64,000 nucleotides of DNA, from the NCBI GenBank assembly GCA_964600985.1, contig CAZRJR010000001.1, positions 399,431 to 463,430 of the forward strand, in the 5' to 3' direction. The notes under the pieces were generated by a model. It was not told the DNA's origin and did no database searches. It was given only the letters and a program-made list of their open reading frames with translations. The translations under genes were made by a program, and so were the position numbers. This document shows positions 6,425 to 40,878 of this stretch, piece after piece; position 1 is the stretch's first letter; every line of letters starts with the position of its first letter. The DNA comes from an uncultured Candidatus Saccharibacteria bacterium. GTDB taxonomy: Bacteria > Patescibacteriota > Saccharimonadia > CAILAD01 > JADZBC01.

Positions 6425-7504
6425 TTAGCGCAGGCGCATAATATCGGCTACCGATACGGCAATCATAAGTGCAATGAGTGCTACGAAGCCGACTGCATGG
6501 ACTAAGGTCTCGACCTTGTCCGTAACCTTTACGCCGGCTCGTTGCATGAGCACAATCAGAAGCCGACCGCCATCGAGAGCTGGCAACGGCAGAGCGTTAA
6601 TAATGGCTAAGGAAAGCGAAATCGAAGCCACGAGTCCCAAGACATAACCAAGTCCATAACGAAATACCTGACTAAATACCACGGTAATACCAATAGGGCC
6701 AGTTACTGTTTGTGACACCTCGGCCTTGGTAAATATGCCAATTATAAGACCGCCGAAGGCCGCCAGCGTCATCCAGATCATCTGTAGGATTACTCCTACT
6801 GCTACAAGTGGCGCGTAGTACCATGGGTAACGCTGAAGAGTCTCAGGCACCGTCGACACGCCAAGGAGGGCTTTAGTACTATCCTTTGCCGGCAGAACAA
6901 TCACCAGCCTCTTAGGAGTATCACCTTGTTTGAGCACAATAGCTGCCTGCTTACCAGCCATAGCATTAATGCGCCCACGTAACTGTTCGGGCGAGCTCAC
7001 TGTTTGGCCATCTATACTTATGATTCGGTTGCCTGTTTGTATATTATTGCGTTCGGCTAAGCTACCCTTTTGCACCTCCACCACCATCAGGCTCGTACTG
7101 CCAGTCGATGGTTTTATGGGCCCAATGCTCGGGAGTGAGTTGGTAAACACCGGCGGGGCACCGACCACAAGCAATCCCGTGATAATTACGTAAGCAATGA
7201 GTAGATTCATGGTTACACCTGCCAGCAGGATCTTGGTCTTAACCCATGTTCCCTGAGTAGCGAAGCTATCGCTCGCTCGCGATTCGCCCTGTTCCCCCTT
7301 GAGTCGTACAAAGCCCCCTAGTGGCAGCGCGTTTATACTGTAGAGCGTCTTACCCTTCTGCACACCCCATAGCCTTGGTGGAAAACCGATGCCGAACTCA
7401 TCTACCTGTACGCCATTGCGACGGGCGGTGATAAAATGACCAAACTCATGAGCGATAATTAAGAATGAAAACAGCAGTACTACTAGTATGATCGTAATGA
7501 TCAC
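6425..7504 (-). CDS. rseP: site-2 protease RseP (M50 zinc metalloprotease with PDZ domain)
   Basis: 359 aa. HEFGH zinc motif, internal PDZ domain, LDGG motif near the C-terminus. GTG start overlaps the uppS stop by 1 nt. Confidence 0.85.
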   Translation of the reverse strand: MIITIILVVLLFSFLIIAHEFGHFITARRNGVQVDEFGIGFPPRLWGVQKGKTLYSINALPLGGFVRLKGEQGESRASDSFATQGTWVKTKILLAGVTMNLLIAYVIITGLLVVGAPPVFTNSLPSIGPIKPSTGSTSLMVVEVQKGSLAERNNIQTGNRIISIDGQTVSSPEQLRGRINAMAGKQAAIVLKQGDTPKRLVIVLPAKDSTKALLGVSTVPETLQRYPWYYAPLVAVGVILQMIWMTLAAFGGLIIGIFTKAEVSQTVTGPIGITVVFSQVFRYGLGYVLGLVASISLSLAIINALPLPALDGGRLLIVLMQRAGVKVTDKVETLVHAVGFVALIALMIAVSVADIMRLR

Positions 7505-8205
7505 TAGGCACCAAACCTTCGCTGACGCTGAGCATACTCACTAAGCAATCGGTCCAGGGCTGACTCGTCAAATTCGGGCCACTTTTCGGGCACAAACATG
7601 AGTTCGGCGTAGGCACTATCCCATAGTAAGAAGTTACTTAGCCGCTGCTCGCCCGAAGTTCGCACTACCATATCGACTGGTGGCAGGTCGGCTGTATACA
7701 AGTGACGCTTAATAGTTTGCTCGTTTATAATGTCAGCCTCTACGCCTTCAGCCACTATACTGCGCACCGCTTGCACTATTTCTTCTTGGCCGCCATAGTT
7801 TAGGCAGATGTTGACCGTGCCACCAGTGTTATTCTGGGTTTTATCTTGAATTTTGTCGAGACTGGCGCTTAACTTCGCGCTAAGTCGATCACGAGAACCG
7901 GACACTATAATCTTAATATTGTCAGCCATAGCGTCTTTAAGCTCTAGCCCCGCCAGGCGTAAGTATAGCTCCATAAGGTATTGAACTTCATCACTTGTGC
8001 GGTTCCAGTTCTCGGTCGAAAAGCCATAGATCGACATCACGGGGATTCCAGCCTTGAACACCGCGCGCGAGATCAGCTTAGCGACGTCTCCGCCCTTTTT
8101 ATGGCCTTCGAGACTCGATAAACCCTGTTGTTTGGCCCAACGACGGTTACCATCGGGTATAAATGCTATATGTTTCGGTAGATGCTCGTGCATGGGAGTC
8201 TCCAT
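7504..8205 (-). CDS. uppS: isoprenyl transferase (undecaprenyl-diphosphate synthase)
   Basis: 233 aa. HIAFIPDGNRRWA and a C-terminal RFG motif typical of cis-prenyltransferases. Confidence 0.9.
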   Translation of the reverse strand: METPMHEHLPKHIAFIPDGNRRWAKQQGLSSLEGHKKGGDVAKLISRAVFKAGIPVMSIYGFSTENWNRTSDEVQYLMELYLRLAGLELKDAMADNIKIIVSGSRDRLSAKLSASLDKIQDKTQNNTGGTVNICLNYGGQEEIVQAVRSIVAEGVEADIINEQTIKRHLYTADLPPVDMVVRTSGEQRLSNFLLWDSAYAELMFVPEKWPEFDESALDRLLSEYAQRQRRFGA

Positions 8206-14950: not shown

Positions 14951-14978
14951 TTGACAAAGTGCTTACGGAGCGTAAAAT
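14951..14978 (+). promoter_or_regulatory. promoter copy A (TTGACA-N16-TAAAAT)
   Basis: TTGACAAAGTGCTTACGGAGCGTAAAAT. It is a near-identical direct repeat of promoter copy B at 15477-15505. Confidence 0.45.
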
Positions 14979-15143
14979 AGGATCAACTCAAAAGGCAAGC
15001 TTGATTGAGCAGACACGGAGTTCTTCACACAAGCCCGCTACCAAGCAGGATTAACAAGACGCCATCGACACTCAGGAAAGCGCACTTACGAGCCGCAGGG
15101 AGACCTGCAAACCGTACCCAAGAGAAGAGAAGAACACAACAAG

Positions 15144-15260
15144 ATGCAGATCACGAAGTTCAACCACTTCTACTTCGCCGGCACCGTCACGAGCGACACC
15201 AGCGCCGGCCTCCAGTTCATCTCGCCCATCGCCTCCGGCACCTGCGAGGACTGCGGCTAG
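15144..15260 (+). CDS. 38-aa micro-ORF with GC3 about 100%, unknown function
   Basis: ATG...TAG encodes MQITKFNHFYFAGTVTSDTSAGLQFISPIASGTCEDCG. All 37 codons after the start end in G or C, against about 50% genome GC. That is a coding signature of a high-GC donor. Confidence 0.35.
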   Translation: MQITKFNHFYFAGTVTSDTSAGLQFISPIASGTCEDCG

Positions 15261-15282
15261 CCGCCCCTCGCCTCGAGCTGCC

Positions 15283-15353
15283 GGCCCGGAGCAGGCCCCA
15301 CCATCGAGAGCGCCTTACAAGCGCTGATGGGAAAGGATGGCCTGCTCCGGGCC
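15283..15353 (+). other. extended GC-rich imperfect hairpin after the micro-ORF
   Basis: 15-bp perfect outer stem GGCCCGGAGCAGGCC / GGCCTGCTCCGGGCC. The loop encloses an inner stem-loop (CCATC gag AGCGC cttacaa GCGCT GATGG). Confidence 0.45.
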
Positions 15354-15400
15354 CCAGCCCAAGATTTTGCCCCGCCAGGCGCAACACCAAATCCGTTATC

Positions 15401-15476: not shown

Positions 15477-15505
15477 TTGACAAAGTACTTACGGTATGCT
15501 AATAT
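15477..15505 (+). promoter_or_regulatory. promoter copy B of the rpf-like gene (TTGACA-N17-TAATAT)
   Basis: TTGACAAAGTACTTACGGTATGCTAATAT. The predicted leader to ATG 15684 is about 170 nt and contains the hairpin ACGACC-N18-GGTCGT-TTTT at 15537-15570. Confidence 0.5.
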
Positions 15506-36638: not shown

Positions 36639-37110
36639 AGTCGTAGACGACCAGTGCATCATTTAAAACTTGTGCAGCAGCCTTTGCTTTAAAAATATTT
36701 GGTATATGCACAAAACTAAAAGGTGTGTCAGATCCGGTTTCCTTAATTCTTCCGGCTATACTGTATGAGATTAAGTTGCAGTAAGAATTTCCCATCGCAC
36801 TTGCTATCTTAAGCCCTTGAGAAGGCTGTATAAAATTCGGCAACTTCCTAATATCCTTGTCGCTTCCGGAACTACGGAATTTACTTGTTGCTAGTGTTTC
36901 AATCCGTAGATAATCTCTATCTCGCCCAGTATAAAGCCCTAGAGCAAGAATTAAGCTATATTTAGAAGGATCAAGGTACTGAGCAAATTTAGATATAGCG
37001 GATTGTGAAGAAGGTAACGCACGATGCTGTGATGGGCTAAAACTAAGCGCATCCATAACCTGCTCCGATATGTTTCCCTTAAATGAGAGAATGAGGGCTG
37101 GCTTTCTCAT
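36628..37110 (-). CDS. pyroglutamyl-peptidase I-like (peptidase C15) protein
   Basis: Start reassigned to ATG 37110, giving an ATGA overlap with the upstream VOC gene stop. Matches Pcp at the catalytic positions: RIETLA (Glu), SAMGNSYCNLISY (Cys) and FSFVHIPN (His). Gly motifs are diverged. Confidence 0.5.
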   Translation of the reverse strand: MRKPALILSFKGNISEQVMDALSFSPSQHRALPSSQSAISKFAQYLDPSKYSLILALGLYTGRDRDYLRIETLATSKFRSSGSDKDIRKLPNFIQPSQGLKIASAMGNSYCNLISYSIAGRIKETGSDTPFSFVHIPNIFKAKAAAQVLNDALVVYDSSK

Positions 37111-37562
37111 AACTGCAACATCTTCGGCGGAGCAAGCAATAGTTCTGGATGCTTTTGCCAATCTATACCCGGCACGTCTATATAAAGCTCAATCTCGTTT
37201 CCATCCGGATCTTCTATGTATAAGCTATGCGTAACTGTGTGGTCAGTCGCTCCCACAACTTCTATGCCATTGTCTTGTAGAGTTTGTGCTGCTTCGCGCA
37301 GTTCATTGTCGCTATCCCCCACCTTGAGACCAAAATGATATAAACCCACTCGGTGGCCTTTTGGCACCCGGCCTGCTGCCTCACCCACTTCTATGAGCAA
37401 TAGCTCATGGTGTGTACGTCCACTGGAAAATACAGCAATTGGCATGTCGGCCAACACACTAATGCGCTTCCATCCAAGTACACGCTCATAAAAGTCCGCG
37501 GACCGCTCCACACTACGCACATATAGAACTATATGGCCCAGTTCGTGAACACGCAGCGACAT
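37107..37562 (-). CDS. VOC/glyoxalase-bleomycin resistance family protein
   Basis: 151 aa, paired beta-alpha-beta-beta-beta modules (HIVLYV..., HHELLLIEV...). Confidence 0.7.
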   Translation of the reverse strand: MSLRVHELGHIVLYVRSVERSADFYERVLGWKRISVLADMPIAVFSSGRTHHELLLIEVGEAAGRVPKGHRVGLYHFGLKVGDSDNELREAAQTLQDNGIEVVGATDHTVTHSLYIEDPDGNEIELYIDVPGIDWQKHPELLLAPPKMLQL

Positions 37563-37566
37563 ACGG

Positions 37567-38460
37567 TTATTCCCCTAGAATCTGGTGGTATAGCCTACCT
37601 AGGTCCTCGTCGGTGGTAAACTCGATAACCAGTTTGCCGCCCTTGGCAGTCTTTTGAATGTCTACTTTGGTGCCTAAATGTTTTGCCAAGGTCGTGGTGA
37701 GCTGTACATTATACGTTTCTTTGGCCTCAACCTTTTTAATCGCAGCTTGGCCGTCGGCCTTGAAGTTACGAGCTAATTCTTCGGCCTGCCGAACATTTAA
37801 GTGACCCTTTAGAATCATATCGAGGAATACCAACTGATCCTCAGGCTTTACTGCCAGTACTTGACGAGCATGACCCTCTACTATCAGTCCGTCATTGAGT
37901 GCTTGTTTGGCCTCGTGTGGCAAATTAAGTAAGCGCATTATGTTGCCAACGGTAGACGGAGCTTTACCTACCCTTATGCCAATTTCGTCGAGCGATAAGT
38001 TGAACTGGTCTGCCAAGGTAGTGTAGGCCGTAGCTAACTCGAGTACATTGAGCTCACTACGTTGTATGTTCTCGACTACCGCTACCTCGAGCTGTTCTTG
38101 CTGAGAAAAACTCCGCACAATAGCCGGCACTGTAGGCAAACCCAGTAGCTTCGCGGCCCGCAGTCGGCGTTCGCCAGCAATCAGCTGGTAAGTATCACCG
38201 TCGCGAATCACCACTAGTGGCTGCACAATGCCGTACGTTTTAATCGACTGAGCCATTTCCTGAAGCTGGTCATCACTAAACTTGGTACGCGGCTGGTGTG
38301 GATTAGGCACAATTGAGCCAACTGGCAAGTCTTCGACTCGTGCGCCTTCCTTTACCAGCTCCTTAGGCATAGAGGGCGCAGCAAACTCACCTATATCGGT
38401 CGGTATAAGGCTATCCAAGCCCCTGCCTAGACGACTACTGTTGGAGTTGTTTGTTGACAC
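37567..38460 (-). CDS. parB: chromosome partitioning protein ParB
   Basis: 297 aa. ParB box (GERRLRAAKLLGL), HTH, and C-terminal dimerisation domain. Confidence 0.9.
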   Translation of the reverse strand: MSTNNSNSSRLGRGLDSLIPTDIGEFAAPSMPKELVKEGARVEDLPVGSIVPNPHQPRTKFSDDQLQEMAQSIKTYGIVQPLVVIRDGDTYQLIAGERRLRAAKLLGLPTVPAIVRSFSQQEQLEVAVVENIQRSELNVLELATAYTTLADQFNLSLDEIGIRVGKAPSTVGNIMRLLNLPHEAKQALNDGLIVEGHARQVLAVKPEDQLVFLDMILKGHLNVRQAEELARNFKADGQAAIKKVEAKETYNVQLTTTLAKHLGTKVDIQKTAKGGKLVIEFTTDEDLGRLYHQILGE

Positions 38461-39208
38461 GCGCGACTACCTCCTTTGCTAACTTCTTATAACTCTGGGC
38501 GCCTTTCGAGAACCGGTCGTAGTGACTAATCGGCTTCCCATGGCTTGGCGCCTCGGCTAATCTTATATTACGCGGAATTATGGTATCAAACAATGTGTCG
38601 GGGAAGTGATGCTTGAGTTCATTCTGTACCTGGGTAGCCAAACTGGTGCGTGAGGAGTGCATAGTTATAACTACCCCAAGGAGCGAAAGCTGTGGGTTCA
38701 GCGCCTGTCGTACCCGTTTAACCGTAGTGAGGAGCTGACCCAAGCCCTCGAGCGCGTAGTATTCACTCTGAACAGGTATGAGCAAGAACTGGGCGGCCAC
38801 CAGACCGTTAAGGGTTAGGAGCCCTAGAGACGGCGGGCAGTCAATGAGGATGTAGTCATAATCTAACTGTTCAATGGCGGCCTTAAGCTTAAATTCGCGC
38901 TGTGACAACTCAGAAAGCTCTATTTCGGCTGCGGCCAGTACCGAGCTGGCTGGCAATACAGCTAGCTTATCTATGCTGGTCGCCGCTATTACTTCGCTGG
39001 CAGGAGTACCCTCGACTAGCACATTGTATATGGTTTTAGGCAAGTTGTTTTTAGCAATTGCCAAGCCACTCGAGCTATTGCCTTGGGGGTCAAGATCAAT
39101 AATTAACACTCGGTTGCCGAGTTTAGCCAGGTACGCACCCAAGTTAATACTCGTCGTTGTTTTACCAACACCACCTTTTTGATTTGCTATCGCGATTATT
39201 CGCGTCAC
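38435..39208 (-). CDS. parA: chromosome partitioning ATPase ParA/Soj
   Basis: Deviant Walker A KGGVGKTT. Likely GTG start at 39208, with GGAGG 6 nt upstream. Confidence 0.9.
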   Translation of the reverse strand: MTRIIAIANQKGGVGKTTTSINLGAYLAKLGNRVLIIDLDPQGNSSSGLAIAKNNLPKTIYNVLVEGTPASEVIAATSIDKLAVLPASSVLAAAEIELSELSQREFKLKAAIEQLDYDYILIDCPPSLGLLTLNGLVAAQFLLIPVQSEYYALEGLGQLLTTVKRVRQALNPQLSLLGVVITMHSSRTSLATQVQNELKHHFPDTLFDTIIPRNIRLAEAPSHGKPISHYDRFSKGAQSYKKLAKEVVARVNKQLQQ

Positions 39209-39352
39209 TCTCACCCTCCGTTTCTTCTATTTGCTATCTTATCATTTTCAGGGTAACCAATCCAATCAAAATACCGAGTTGACGAGATTGTAGGCCAGGA
39301 GTATGATTATGCCACCACACAACTCCGTGTGGCTCCGACAGAAGGGAACCTC

Positions 39353-39787
39353 ATGACGAGGAAACTTCGTGTCGCAGCGCAGAAGGCGTGGACCGTCTTG
39401 GTGGCCTGCATGGTCATCTTGATCGCAATCGCCATCGGCTCTGCGACGATCATGGAGGCGACGAGCAAGACCGTCGCCTCGGCTCGAGCGCCCGACGCGG
39501 TGCTCACCCAGATCACGACCGTGGGAATCGTGCAGGTGGCCGCTGCGGCCATCCTGATCCTCGGGACGATCTTCCTGGCCACGCAGGTCTTCTACAAGCA
39601 GCGAAGCACGCTGAAGTCGAGGACTCGCAACGGCCTGCGACCCACGTTGGTGAGCTTCTTCGCGCGGTTCAACCTCACGGCCTCGGAGGAGGCGGACGTC
39701 GGCCATCGACACCCCCGCTCCACCTTCGGCCAGCACTCGGGCCTCGGCTCGCACGCGTTCAAGGCGTCCGTGCCGTTCCCCGTCTGA
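39353..39787 (+). CDS. 2-TM small membrane protein encoded in a high-GC island, unknown function
   Basis: 144 aa. ATG 39353 with GAAGGGA 7 nt upstream. Codon third positions are about 85-90% G/C. Two clear TM helices. The overlapping antisense ORF 39266..39802 is Arg/Asp-rich junk. Confidence 0.5.
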   Translation: MTRKLRVAAQKAWTVLVACMVILIAIAIGSATIMEATSKTVASARAPDAVLTQITTVGIVQVAAAAILILGTIFLATQVFYKQRSTLKSRTRNGLRPTLVSFFARFNLTASEEADVGHRHPRSTFGQHSGLGSHAFKASVPFPV

Positions 39788-39824
39788 CCACCTGACCACC
39801 AACGCCCCACCTCCACGGGGCTAC

Positions 39825-39863
39825 GACCCTCCGCCGCAAGCTCCAAGCTCGTGGCGGAGGGTC
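39825..39863 (+). terminator. GC-rich hairpin after the island gene (U-tract-poor terminator)
   Basis: Perfect 11-bp stem GACCCTCCGCC / GGCGGAGGGTC with a 17-nt loop, starting 38 nt after the stop codon. Confidence 0.5.
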
Positions 39864-39967
39864 TCCGCGTTATGATCAAATTGAATGTTTTTACACCAAG
39901 CCATTTACAATCAACCCCAGATCTGCTAAGATTATTTATTGACTAACTTAAATCTAAGAGGAATTCC

Positions 39968-40285
39968 ATGATTGCAGTAATCGAAGCAGGCTCCAAGCAG
40001 TACATAGTAGAAAAAGGCCAGACCATACAGACCGAGCTAGTCGGTACAGGGAATGGCTCGACTAAGTCTATGGAATTTAAGCCTCTTCTCATTATCGACG
40101 GCGACAAAGTCCACGTGGGTAAGCCAGTACTCGAAAATGCCGTAGTAACGGCTAGCGTGGCTCCAGAAGTCGTAAAAGGTGACAAAGTCGTGGTACTTAA
40201 GTACAAGGCCAAGAAGCGTCAGAGCACCAAGACTGGCCACCGCCAAAAGTACTCTGAACTCACTATTACTGACATCAAAGCTTAG
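39968..40285 (+). CDS. rplU: 50S ribosomal protein L21
   Basis: 105 aa. MIAVIEAGSKQYIVEKGQTI... is the canonical L21 N-terminus. AAGAGGAAT RBS. Confidence 0.95.
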   Translation: MIAVIEAGSKQYIVEKGQTIQTELVGTGNGSTKSMEFKPLLIIDGDKVHVGKPVLENAVVTASVAPEVVKGDKVVVLKYKAKKRQSTKTGHRQKYSELTITDIKA

Positions 40286-40350: not shown

Positions 40351-40878
40351 ATGTATTCGCTTACGCTTTCGTTCTTTGTAGCAAACTTAGTTCATATTTA
40401 CGTACTTGTTCGACACAGACATTCCAAGCAGCCTACGATTAGCGAGCGTGCCGTGCAGAGTAATGAATCTCTAGCCCTCTACATTGTTGGCCACTTGCTG
40501 GCAGGCCTAGCTTTTGCCGGCTTCGCGTTCGAATTCTTTTGGCTTCAGTTTGGCAGTAAATTACTCTTTGCGCTTGCCCTTGGTGGAGTCACACTTGAAT
40601 GGGTACAGGCTCTCATTCCAGCCAAAGGCAAGTATGAGCCCATACATAGAGCGGTCGCATATGGCATGAGCGGCTTTGTGGTAACTCTTGGTACTCTTTC
40701 CATATTTACTTTTACGCTGTCCACATTAACCAGAATAATGCTTATTCTTCTGCAGGCAATAATTATTGCGGGTTACCCCTTGGCAGCGCGACTACCGCAC
40801 AAACATTTTTGGGTCATCCAAATGGTGAATATTAACTTGTTTTACCTACAAATGTATATATTACTGCGGGCAGGCTAG
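40351..40878 (+). CDS. membrane protein, unknown function
   Basis: 175 aa, about 5 TM segments. ATG verified. Confidence 0.5.
   Translation: MYSLTLSFFVANLVHIYVLVRHRHSKQPTISERAVQSNESLALYIVGHLLAGLAFAGFAFEFFWLQFGSKLLFALALGGVTLEWVQALIPAKGKYEPIHRAVAYGMSGFVVTLGTLSIFTFTLSTLTRIMLILLQAIIIAGYPLAARLPHKHFWVIQMVNINLFYLQMYILLRAG

Follow-up and report, generated by a model that had tools for sequence, protein, structure and literature searches.

Why does a stretch of some 580 bp with about 65% G+C (GC) stand in a region of about 50% GC in an uncultured Candidatus Saccharibacteria bacterium, and does such a composition mean that the DNA arrived there recently? The question is put by a 64,000-nucleotide segment of contig CAZRJR010000001.1 (assembly GCA_964600985.1, forward-strand positions 399,431 to 463,430), hereafter the window, in which an open reading frame (ORF) of 144 codons, here called X, occupies the high-GC island between parA and rplU. 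A first-pass annotation of the window, made from its letters alone, had read the island as a recent horizontal acquisition. The account that we consider probable, with reservations given below, is that X belongs to a self-contained unit that was inserted once and has been inherited vertically since, that it encodes on the plus strand a small membrane protein, and that its GC is held by selection on the transcript. X appears to be an old, vertically inherited insertion and not a recent import.

The compositional contrast is sharp. Between 39310 and 39866 the GC content is 65%, against a mean of 49.7% over the 64-kb window, and 200-bp windows covering 39300-39899 give 0.605-0.68, against 0.43-0.50 on both sides. 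GC at the first, second, and third codon positions of X is 0.56, 0.51, and 0.89, whereas parA, parB, rplU, and the other neighbours have a third-position GC (GC3) of 0.46-0.54. The other 59 nonoverlapping ORFs of at least 120 amino acids (aa) in the window have a mean GC3 of 0.512 (standard deviation 0.052, maximum 0.60), which places X 7 standard deviations above that mean. In all this the windowed analysis agrees with the first-pass annotation, which had given the extent and GC of the stretch, the ATG at 39353, the ribosome-binding site (RBS) GAAGGGA, a GC3 of 85-90%, and a position between parAB and rplU, the last confirmed by Pfam for parB, parA, and rplU. The features of the locus are as follows.

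39279..39307, plus strand: sigma-70-like promoter-like site of X, TTGACG-N17-TATGAT, 10 of 12 consensus matches, in AT-rich DNA directly left of the GC island
39315..39332, plus strand: 5′ stem-loop CCACAC / GTGTGG, 6 bp, at the predicted 5′ end of the X transcript
39341..39347, plus strand: RBS GAAGGGA, 5 nt 5′ of the ATG
39353..39787, plus strand: X, 144 aa, ATG 39353 to TGA; start, frame, and stop region kept in five lineages
39804..39821, plus strand: first 3′ stem-loop GCCCC ... GGGGC, in all five lineages, with changes on both sides at one pair
39825..39863, plus strand: second 3′ stem-loop, an 11-13-bp GC-rich stem with a small AGCT/AGCT helix on top and no U-run
39904..39932, plus strand: promoter-like site of rplU, TTTACA-N17-TAAGAT, kept in filled and empty sites; right edge of the insertion
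39968..40285, plus strand: rplU (ribosomal protein L21), right neighbour (Pfam Ribosomal_L21p, E = 2e-25)
38435..39214, minus strand: parA, left neighbour, divergent from X (Pfam AAA_31, E = 5e-63)
37567-38460, minus strand: parB (Pfam)
39266..39802, minus strand: antisense ORF of 178 aa, interpreted as a compositional shadow

The proposed unit would comprise the promoter, the 5′ stem-loop, the RBS, the 144-codon ORF, and the two 3′ stem-loops. A consensus scan found three promoter-like sites in the region where 0.3 were expected, and the arrangement TTGACN-N17-TANNAT in AT-rich DNA is common to all five versions of X described below (including L003, L005, L006, and L007); the TTGACG-N17-TATGAT site is predicted to function as a promoter. 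The RBS is at the same place in the relatives, as AAAGGGG or AAGGGGG. At the other end, the arms of the second 3′ hairpin, GACCCTCCGCC at 39825-39835 and GGCGGAGGGTC at 39853-39863, pair with each other and are followed by no T-run, in line with the 11-bp GC-rich hairpin without U-tract that the first-pass annotation had placed at the close of the unit. This stem-loop is presumably a terminator or a protector of the 3′ end; no canonical terminator was scored in the scan at the 3′ end of X.

Relatives of X are few and confined to one group. Below, W denotes the version of the window, and L with a number the compared loci or contigs. A word-indexed search of 5.8 billion protein clusters returned nothing beyond an identical copy (L001, a Logan contig of 1080 bp) and a protein with 42% identity, and a HMMER profile search of 1.84 billion representative proteins returned three proteins in total. 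A scan of the GTDB species representatives gave two X loci, both in Saccharibacteria metagenome-assembled genomes (MAGs); scans of JGI metagenome contigs and of IMG/VR gave no confirmed relative, and tblastn against 50,697 phage records gave no match. No homologue outside the Saccharibacteria clade was thus found among the representatives, the clusters, IMG/VR, the JGI contigs, or the phage records. The first-pass annotation had looked to Actinobacteria for the donor; neither an actinobacterial nor any other donor homologue appeared in the two protein collections or the phage records.

Five distinct versions of X can be recognized, all in Saccharibacteria: that of the window (the same as L001), that of L002 (shared with L004 and L007-L010), and those of L003, L005, and L006. 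Their aa identities range from 42% to 78%: L002-L006 0.78, L002-L003 0.73, L005 with these three 0.47-0.50, and W with all others 0.42-0.47. All five have a GC of 0.64-0.66 and a GC3 of 0.82-0.89, and share the 5′ stem-loop, a purine-rich RBS, the ATG, both 3′ stem-loops, and an N-terminus M-R-x-L/F-R-V. The order parA<-|X->|rplU-> is conserved: X lies directly upstream of rplU in all five and, where the contig extends enough, also directly upstream of, and divergent from, parA. The first-pass annotation had named homologues of this GC content at the same locus as evidence against recent import, and within a clade, in five lineages, they are present. Assembly breaks are frequent in or beside X (the contigs of L001, L002, and L005 have only 736-1314 bp, that of L003 stops 150 bp after X, and that of L004 begins inside it); they are compatible with strain-level variability, or with coverage bias in GC-rich DNA.

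The closest genomes for comparison were found with the ParA of the window, and their loci were then read. The lineage whose ParA is 85% identical to that of the window carries X, and four related lineages (L011, L012/13, L014/15, and L016/17) have an empty site with parA and rplU 100-153 bp apart; at ParA identities of 82%, 82%, 79%, and 75%, the gaps are 126, 100, 136, and 153 bp. In a neighbour-joining tree of ParA plus ParB, the X carriers (W,(L007,L003)) group together with 65% bootstrap and are sister, with 77%, to the empty-site lineages (L014,(L016,L011)), the outgroup L012 having an empty site as well. One old gain of X would be the most parsimonious history, with moderate support, and the insertion would have occurred once, between the divergent promoters of parA and rplU in the ancestor of a small clade of Saccharibacteria (Saccharimonadia), with vertical transmission since. 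The order of similarity among the alleles of X (L002-L006, then L003, L005, and W) is the same as for L21 and for ParA/ParB, as vertical descent predicts.

The island edges have no tRNA, no mobility gene, and no consistent target duplication; no search for integrase genes was made in the rest of the genome. In the window the island is flanked by TATGAT and in L005 by TATATT, but L003 and L007 are inconsistent with a target-site duplication and the empty sites lack a matching target, and these flanking motifs were judged to be due to chance. No portion of the island was found duplicated in the window, and mutagenesis of the diversity-generating retroelement type from a template repeat was rejected on this ground. 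Horizontal acquisition is the likeliest origin of X, and a high-GC source would be the simplest origin for its NNS codon usage (any two bases followed by G or C).

Third codon positions bear directly on the age of the island. In the neighbouring genes they differ between lineages at 0.41-0.66 of sites (0.20 in the closest pair), and synonymous distances (dS) exceed 1.5 or are undefined for most pairs, that is, saturated; the ratio of nonsynonymous to synonymous rates (dN/dS) is 0.02-0.14 where defined and 0.02-0.07 in most pairs. For X, dS is 0.03-0.68 and the ratio of nonsynonymous to synonymous proportions (pN/pS) is 0.8-3.8. Its third positions change three to six times less often than those of the neighbours, and its Nei-Gojobori dS is 8-11 times lower. 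Between L007 and L003, third positions differ at 19 of 143 sites in X and at 260 of 553 in the neighbours (P = 1e-14), and between L007 and L006 at 5 of 143 and 61 of 276, respectively (P = 8e-8). Within X the differences are even across codon positions between W and L002 (0.41/0.41/0.41) and depleted at position 3 between L002 and L006 (19/15/5). In deep comparisons, C↔G changes make up 52-55% of the third-position differences in X versus 12% in parA, where transitions dominate (P = 7e-9), and the third positions of X are about 70% of the way to saturation, mainly via C↔G. This excess suggests that the sites have turned over many times, always as G or C, and it comes near the share expected at saturation under a stationary process with a GC3 of about 0.87.

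A recent import decaying toward the composition of its host should look otherwise. A two-state neutral decay from GC3 = 1.0, calibrated on the differences between G/C and A/T at the third positions of the neighbours, predicts a value of about 0.70, and the five lineages have 0.82-0.89 (P = 8e-8 to 8e-4). A GC3 this high despite saturated neighbours implies that a directional force keeps G/C in X. The 65% GC of X seems to be actively maintained and not the leftover of a recent transfer.

The alternative of a recent, unameliorated acquisition from a high-GC Gram-positive, such as an actinobacterial host, would account for the atypical GC and GC3, for the absence of the island from several related genomes, and for a hairpin lacking a U-run. 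It would have to reconcile these with five versions at 42-78% identity that occupy one site, share promoter and untranslated regions (UTRs), and have a tree congruent with host genes, with third positions that have covered about 70% of the distance to saturation, chiefly through C↔G changes, with the lack of homologues outside the clade in every collection searched, and with the absence of a mobility gene, tRNA, or target duplication at its edges. It is thus very improbable. Of the earlier proposal of a recent horizontal acquisition, the insertion stands, given the empty sites in four lineages, and the recency falls, given five divergent and congruent versions and a GC3 above neutral decay.

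Could the cassette have been replaced repeatedly, either by separate uptake from diverged high-GC donors or by swaps of alleles among Saccharibacteria through the conserved flanks, with the donors supplying the GC pattern? Divergence dominated by C↔G is what one expects inside high-GC genomes, contigs often break at X, and one segment looks recently homogenized. Between L007 and L006 the AT-rich flanks differ by 2-3%, and flanks and UTRs together by 0-4%, versus 20-23% at the third positions of rplU and of the 175-aa ORF that follows it (orf175); the intergenic segment of about 750 bp between parA and rplU, X included, may have been exchanged recently between these two lineages. On the other hand, no donor pool was detected and the tree of X tracks that of the hosts; divergence in the AT-rich promoter region and in the UTRs parallels that of the host lineages, flank differences being 2%, 28%, 34%, and 44% along the same series; and swaps among Saccharibacteria leave the retention of G/C unexplained. 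Repeated replacement is consequently rated as improbable.

A local recombination hot spot with GC-biased gene conversion would keep third positions at G/C with no selection on RNA. Some directional force on free sites is indeed required, and the segment exchanged between L007 and L006 is a hint of recombination. Against this explanation, the edges of the GC block are sharp and coincide with the predicted ends of the transcript. The UTRs of X have 0.61-0.71 GC, and the flanks outside these ends, 86-122 nt that would lie in the same conversion tracts, have 0.32-0.43; GC-rich UTRs next to AT-rich flanks imply that the force acts over the full length of the transcribed block and no further. Moreover, GC3 is normal in parA and rplU. 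Biased conversion is accordingly an unlikely explanation.

Selection on the transcript for overall G/C richness, and not for one specific fold, is the preferred reason for the GC of X; some local process remains as the alternative. Under the preferred reason, third positions and both UTRs would be at a compositional equilibrium of their own, at about 85-90% G/C, with changes from G/C to A/T removed and C↔G swaps accumulating. The selected trait could be a very stable, ribonuclease (RNase)-poor mRNA, through its overall stability or its few A/U-rich RNase sites, or a property useful in a high-GC partner cell. A stronger form of the last idea, that the actinobacterial style of X (NNS codons, G/C-rich UTRs, and a 3′ end made of a hairpin only) is selected since the transcript or the DNA must work in a high-GC setting, is a long shot. 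Were it true, X might be transferred to the actinobacterial host cell or expressed there, or might survive RNases or toxins that cut A/U-rich RNA; nucleotide composition, beyond the protein, would be a selected trait, and fast protein evolution would reflect an arms race at the host interface.

A second, longer frame lies opposite to X, and several comparisons bear on which of the two is translated. In a codon-blind alignment of the DNA of X, all indels (7/7) are multiples of 3. Codons ending in A or T are enriched among the first 12 codons (22/60 versus 82/653, P = 7e-6, the lineages not being fully independent), which is the usual mark of a translated start; several codons of this type are fixed in all lineages. 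Replacements preserve hydropathy in the sense frame (r = 0.29) and not in the antisense frame (0.04), and their BLOSUM62 scores are -0.1 to -0.5 in the sense frame versus -0.5 to -0.9 in the antisense frame.

Taking the Arg/Asp/Gly/His-rich ORF of the minus strand (178-195 aa), upstream of or fused to parA, as the real gene has some apparent merits: it is stop-free in all lineages and longer than X, has a pN/pS of 0.5-0.77 (versus 0.8-3.8 for the sense frame) and a native-like third-position GC of 0.56-0.62, and has been called in public records. The frame is open, however, because the third positions of the sense strand are G or C. Its products would have 18-27 R versus 0-2 K and hardly any N, I, F, or Y, a composition unnatural for a genome of 50% GC; the stretch antisense to the window CDS (coding sequence; 145 aa of the 178-aa ORF) has 27 R and 1 K. 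Its first codon positions change by C↔G and not by transitions, which selection on a protein leaves unexplained, and the compensatory change in the 5′ hairpin of L005 would be doubly nonsynonymous in it. The consensus scan found no promoter-like site leading into it from the rplU side; the only such site on the minus strand (39315-39287, 9/12) lies at its 3′ end and faces parA. Its end relative to parA also varies, with the stop 52 nt before parA in the window and 24 nt before it in L007, and an in-frame fusion in L003. The minus-strand gene is thus hardly credible. These sequence comparisons show the plus strand to be the coding one, from which X would be translated, and the Arg-rich ORF to be a compositional shadow and not a gene, much as the first-pass annotation had it.

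The public gene calls at this locus that use the shadow are annotation artefacts. A 195-aa ORF is called in L007-L010 (e.g., L007 3390-3977, in the orientation of parA), and in the MAG of L003 a 474-aa ParA call (6546-7985, minus strand; P0135) contains the shadow ORF fused in frame as a false extension of 218 aa.

Does the RNA itself carry a conserved structure? The 5′ stem-loop pairs at every position in all five lineages, with a compensatory change from A-U to G-C in L005. The first 3′ stem-loop is present in all five, the second is 96.7% paired over the five lineages, with one covarying G-C / A-U pair, and both contain compensatory changes. Convincing covariation is limited to these three terminal hairpins, which also supply much of the difference in minimum free energy (MFE) between the whole transcript and shuffled sequences (z = -5.7). 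Under column shuffling the consensus fold has z scores of -9.4 (transcript) and -5.5 (CDS), versus +0.15 to -2.9 for neighbouring genes. The RNAalifold structure contains 32 pairs with double changes versus 4-11 in slid controls, a count that is biased because the structure was fitted to the same five sequences. A specific fold of the X mRNA was rejected, as the less biased test of pairs across lineages, given below, was negative.

These results also bear on the idea that the locus acts through a structured RNA, whether noncoding, of dual function, or serving as the mRNA of a type I toxin, the ORF being secondary. The z scores just given, the covarying hairpins, the even spread of substitutions over codon positions, and the fixed A/T-ending codons are all in its favour. 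The period-3 composition, intact frame, in-frame indels, conserved ATG and RBS, and hydropathy-preserving replacements point to translation, pairs are preserved across lineages no better than in slid controls, the transcript matches no Rfam family, no antisense promoter was found in the consensus scan, and a product of 140-146 aa is more than twice the typical size of a type I toxin. A functional RNA of this kind is therefore quite improbable. A 16-nt direct repeat, GCCTCGGCTCG.RCGC (39476-39491 and 39741-39756), is read in two frames (as S-A-R-A and L-G-S-H-A) and kept in most lineages; about 0.5 10-mer repeats are expected by chance in 435 nt of the same composition, and the repeat could be due to chance.

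Several observations weigh against the history and mechanism proposed here. The bootstrap of the island-bearing clade is only 65%, and a history with one gain and a later loss costs only one step more than a single gain. Since no donor was found, the case for a foreign origin of X consists of composition and the indel. Only five versions of X are available, three of them close, and the rates are drawn from few independent contrasts. One of these, between L007 and L006, is weakened by the possible exchange of the segment, which leaves the contrasts with L003, L005, and W unaffected. As to the transcript, the MFE z score of the CDS taken separately (-1.3 to -4.3) overlaps those of the neighbouring genes used as controls (-1.4 to -1.5), and pairs of the MFE structure of one lineage in which a base has changed are not kept in the others beyond expectation (0.29-0.53 versus 0.29-0.43 in slid controls).

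The product of X, 140-146 aa across versions, would be a small membrane protein with two hydrophobic helices and a basic, partly disordered cytoplasmic tail that holds the best-conserved motifs. The two transmembrane helices of the first-pass annotation correspond to two Kyte-Doolittle peaks (window of 19; 2.76 and 2.47 in the window version) at the same positions in all five versions. After a basic N-terminus come helix 1 (about residues 13-35), an acidic loop of about 20 residues with an invariant SARAPD, and helix 2 (about 55-80), followed by a basic segment (KQRSTLKSRTR in the window; RSTLK(S/A)R(T/A)R in the family) and a C-terminal tail of about 55 aa with the motifs G(H/Q)R(Q/H)PR, GLGS(H/L)A, and VPF. 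An AlphaFold model from a four-sequence alignment has two long helices (3-43 and 47-93), a third at 95-111, and a disordered tail, with a low confidence (mean predicted local distance difference test 60.6). By the positive-inside rule the topology is likely N-in/C-in. Alternatively, helix 1 could be a cleaved signal peptide, with IQA, VQA, IAA, or MEA following it in all versions. A lipobox-like LVAC is found only in the window version, the other four having no cysteine.

Searches of Pfam, NCBIfam, PHROGs, and PADLOC gave no family common to the members of X, only scattered sub-threshold matches to hydrophobic families, each with one or two of the five. The Pfam family DUF6097 matches residues 9-84 of a single member (E = 0.0019, 18.8 bits against a gathering score of 27.5); membership was rejected, as this is a match of hydrophobic composition and the other members match different membrane families equally weakly.

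The protein has changed quickly. The closest pair has 36 nonsynonymous versus 4 synonymous differences in X (binomial P = 0.011), and 39/429 differences in the CDS versus 8/320 in UTRs and flanks (P = 2e-4). Two near-identical strains, L007 and L009, have 4 differences over 4.8 kb, of which 2 are nonsynonymous changes in X. Measured against the synonymous rate of its neighbours, the X protein would be under weak purifying selection; with its own silent sites and flanks as the yardstick, the closest pair gives the appearance of positive selection. X may therefore be regarded as a fast-evolving, possibly diversifying, predicted envelope protein that keeps its hydrophobicity and a few short motifs.

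The surroundings of the locus vary among close relatives. The ORF after rplU (window 40351-40878, plus strand) encodes a hydrophobic protein of 175 aa without a Pfam family, is not rpmA, and keeps its position in L006, L007, L009, and L014. Beside parB (window 37107-37562, minus strand; L007 5653-6381; L011 5693-6499) the window and L016 have a gene for a glyoxalase, L007 has one for a short-chain dehydrogenase, and L011 lacks both; L006 and L007 carry a DUF6879 gene that is missing from the window. The first-pass annotation had placed the locus near the likely replication origin, a suggestion that finds no support: cumulative GC skew falls steadily over the 64 kb with no turn, and the parS consensus was not found at up to 3 mismatches. 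No Rfam family, tRNA included, reaches its gathering score anywhere in the 64 kb.

There is another high-GC island in the window (island 1, 15126-15400), whose 38-codon ORF (15145-15261; MQITKFNHFYFAGTVTSDTSAGLQFISPIASGTCEDCG) uses only codons with a final G or C; a hairpin with a 15-bp stem (arms 15283-15297 and 15339-15353) comes after it. No homologue of its peptide was found. The NNS style is common to island 1 and X, and genes of this kind may make up a class in the genome. Island 1 lies between two copies of an 18-nt repeat that resembles a promoter (TTGACAAAGTRCTTACGG, 94% identical; 14951-14968 and 15477-15494); the repeat could be a duplicated promoter made by, or used by, the insertion of island 1.

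The case has some general interest. Atypical GC is routinely read as a sign of recent transfer, and here an island persisted in a reduced genome of 50% GC, with GC3 kept at about 0.85-0.9, while the synonymous sites of its neighbours became saturated. X would be a clean natural case of a compositional equilibrium specific to one gene, and it could help to tell selection on the composition of mRNA apart from biased conversion in bacteria. It would also define a new clade-restricted small membrane protein, maybe subject to diversifying selection, in bacteria that live as epibionts on high-GC hosts. In practice, public gene calls at the locus are wrong in several assemblies.

Three known systems share part of the design of X. 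Class II holins and similar small two-helix membrane proteins of phages, among them those of actinobacteriophages, resemble it in size (about 140 aa for X), in the two N-terminal hydrophobic helices with a likely N-in/C-in topology, in the charged C-terminal tail, and in the high GC. X differs in having neither a PHROG, Pfam, or NCBIfam family common to its members nor a tblastn match in the phage records, and in its setting, since it is fixed between parA and rplU, at a housekeeping locus of the chromosome, where neither a lysin gene nor a prophage is present. The mRNAs of type I toxins (hok/sok-like) likewise encode small hydrophobic proteins, and X has a GC-rich mRNA with 5′ and 3′ stem-loops and a possible pairing at the RBS. 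These toxins, however, have roughly 60 aa or less and one helix, and the X product, with two helices, is two to three times longer than known toxins; moreover, the consensus scan found no antisense promoter for X, and there is no match in Rfam. Finally, hairpin-only (I-shaped) intrinsic terminators have been described for high-GC Actinobacteria, and the 3′ hairpin of X, with its long GC-rich stem and no U-run directly after it, is similar. Relatives of X differ from these in having a partial T-rich tail, and nearby native terminators, for example those after rplU in L005 and L006, are canonical. The hairpin may equally be a stabilizer of the 3′ end, termination being a prediction.

The closest parallel in overall pattern is provided by the islands of compositionally atypical ORFan genes that the amelioration framework of Lawrence and Ochman attributes to horizontal transfer. 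Like them, the island of X is a short block whose GC and codon usage look foreign; it contains a single orphan gene, occurs in one clade, and corresponds to an empty site in relatives. The island departs from these in that no donor, mobility gene, or target duplication was found and, above all, in showing no drift toward the host composition despite saturated neighbours, its silent sites turning over between C and G instead. X thus appears to be an orphan, clade-restricted gene for a small membrane protein whose high G/C has been maintained over a long divergence in a mid-GC genome of the Candidate Phyla Radiation.

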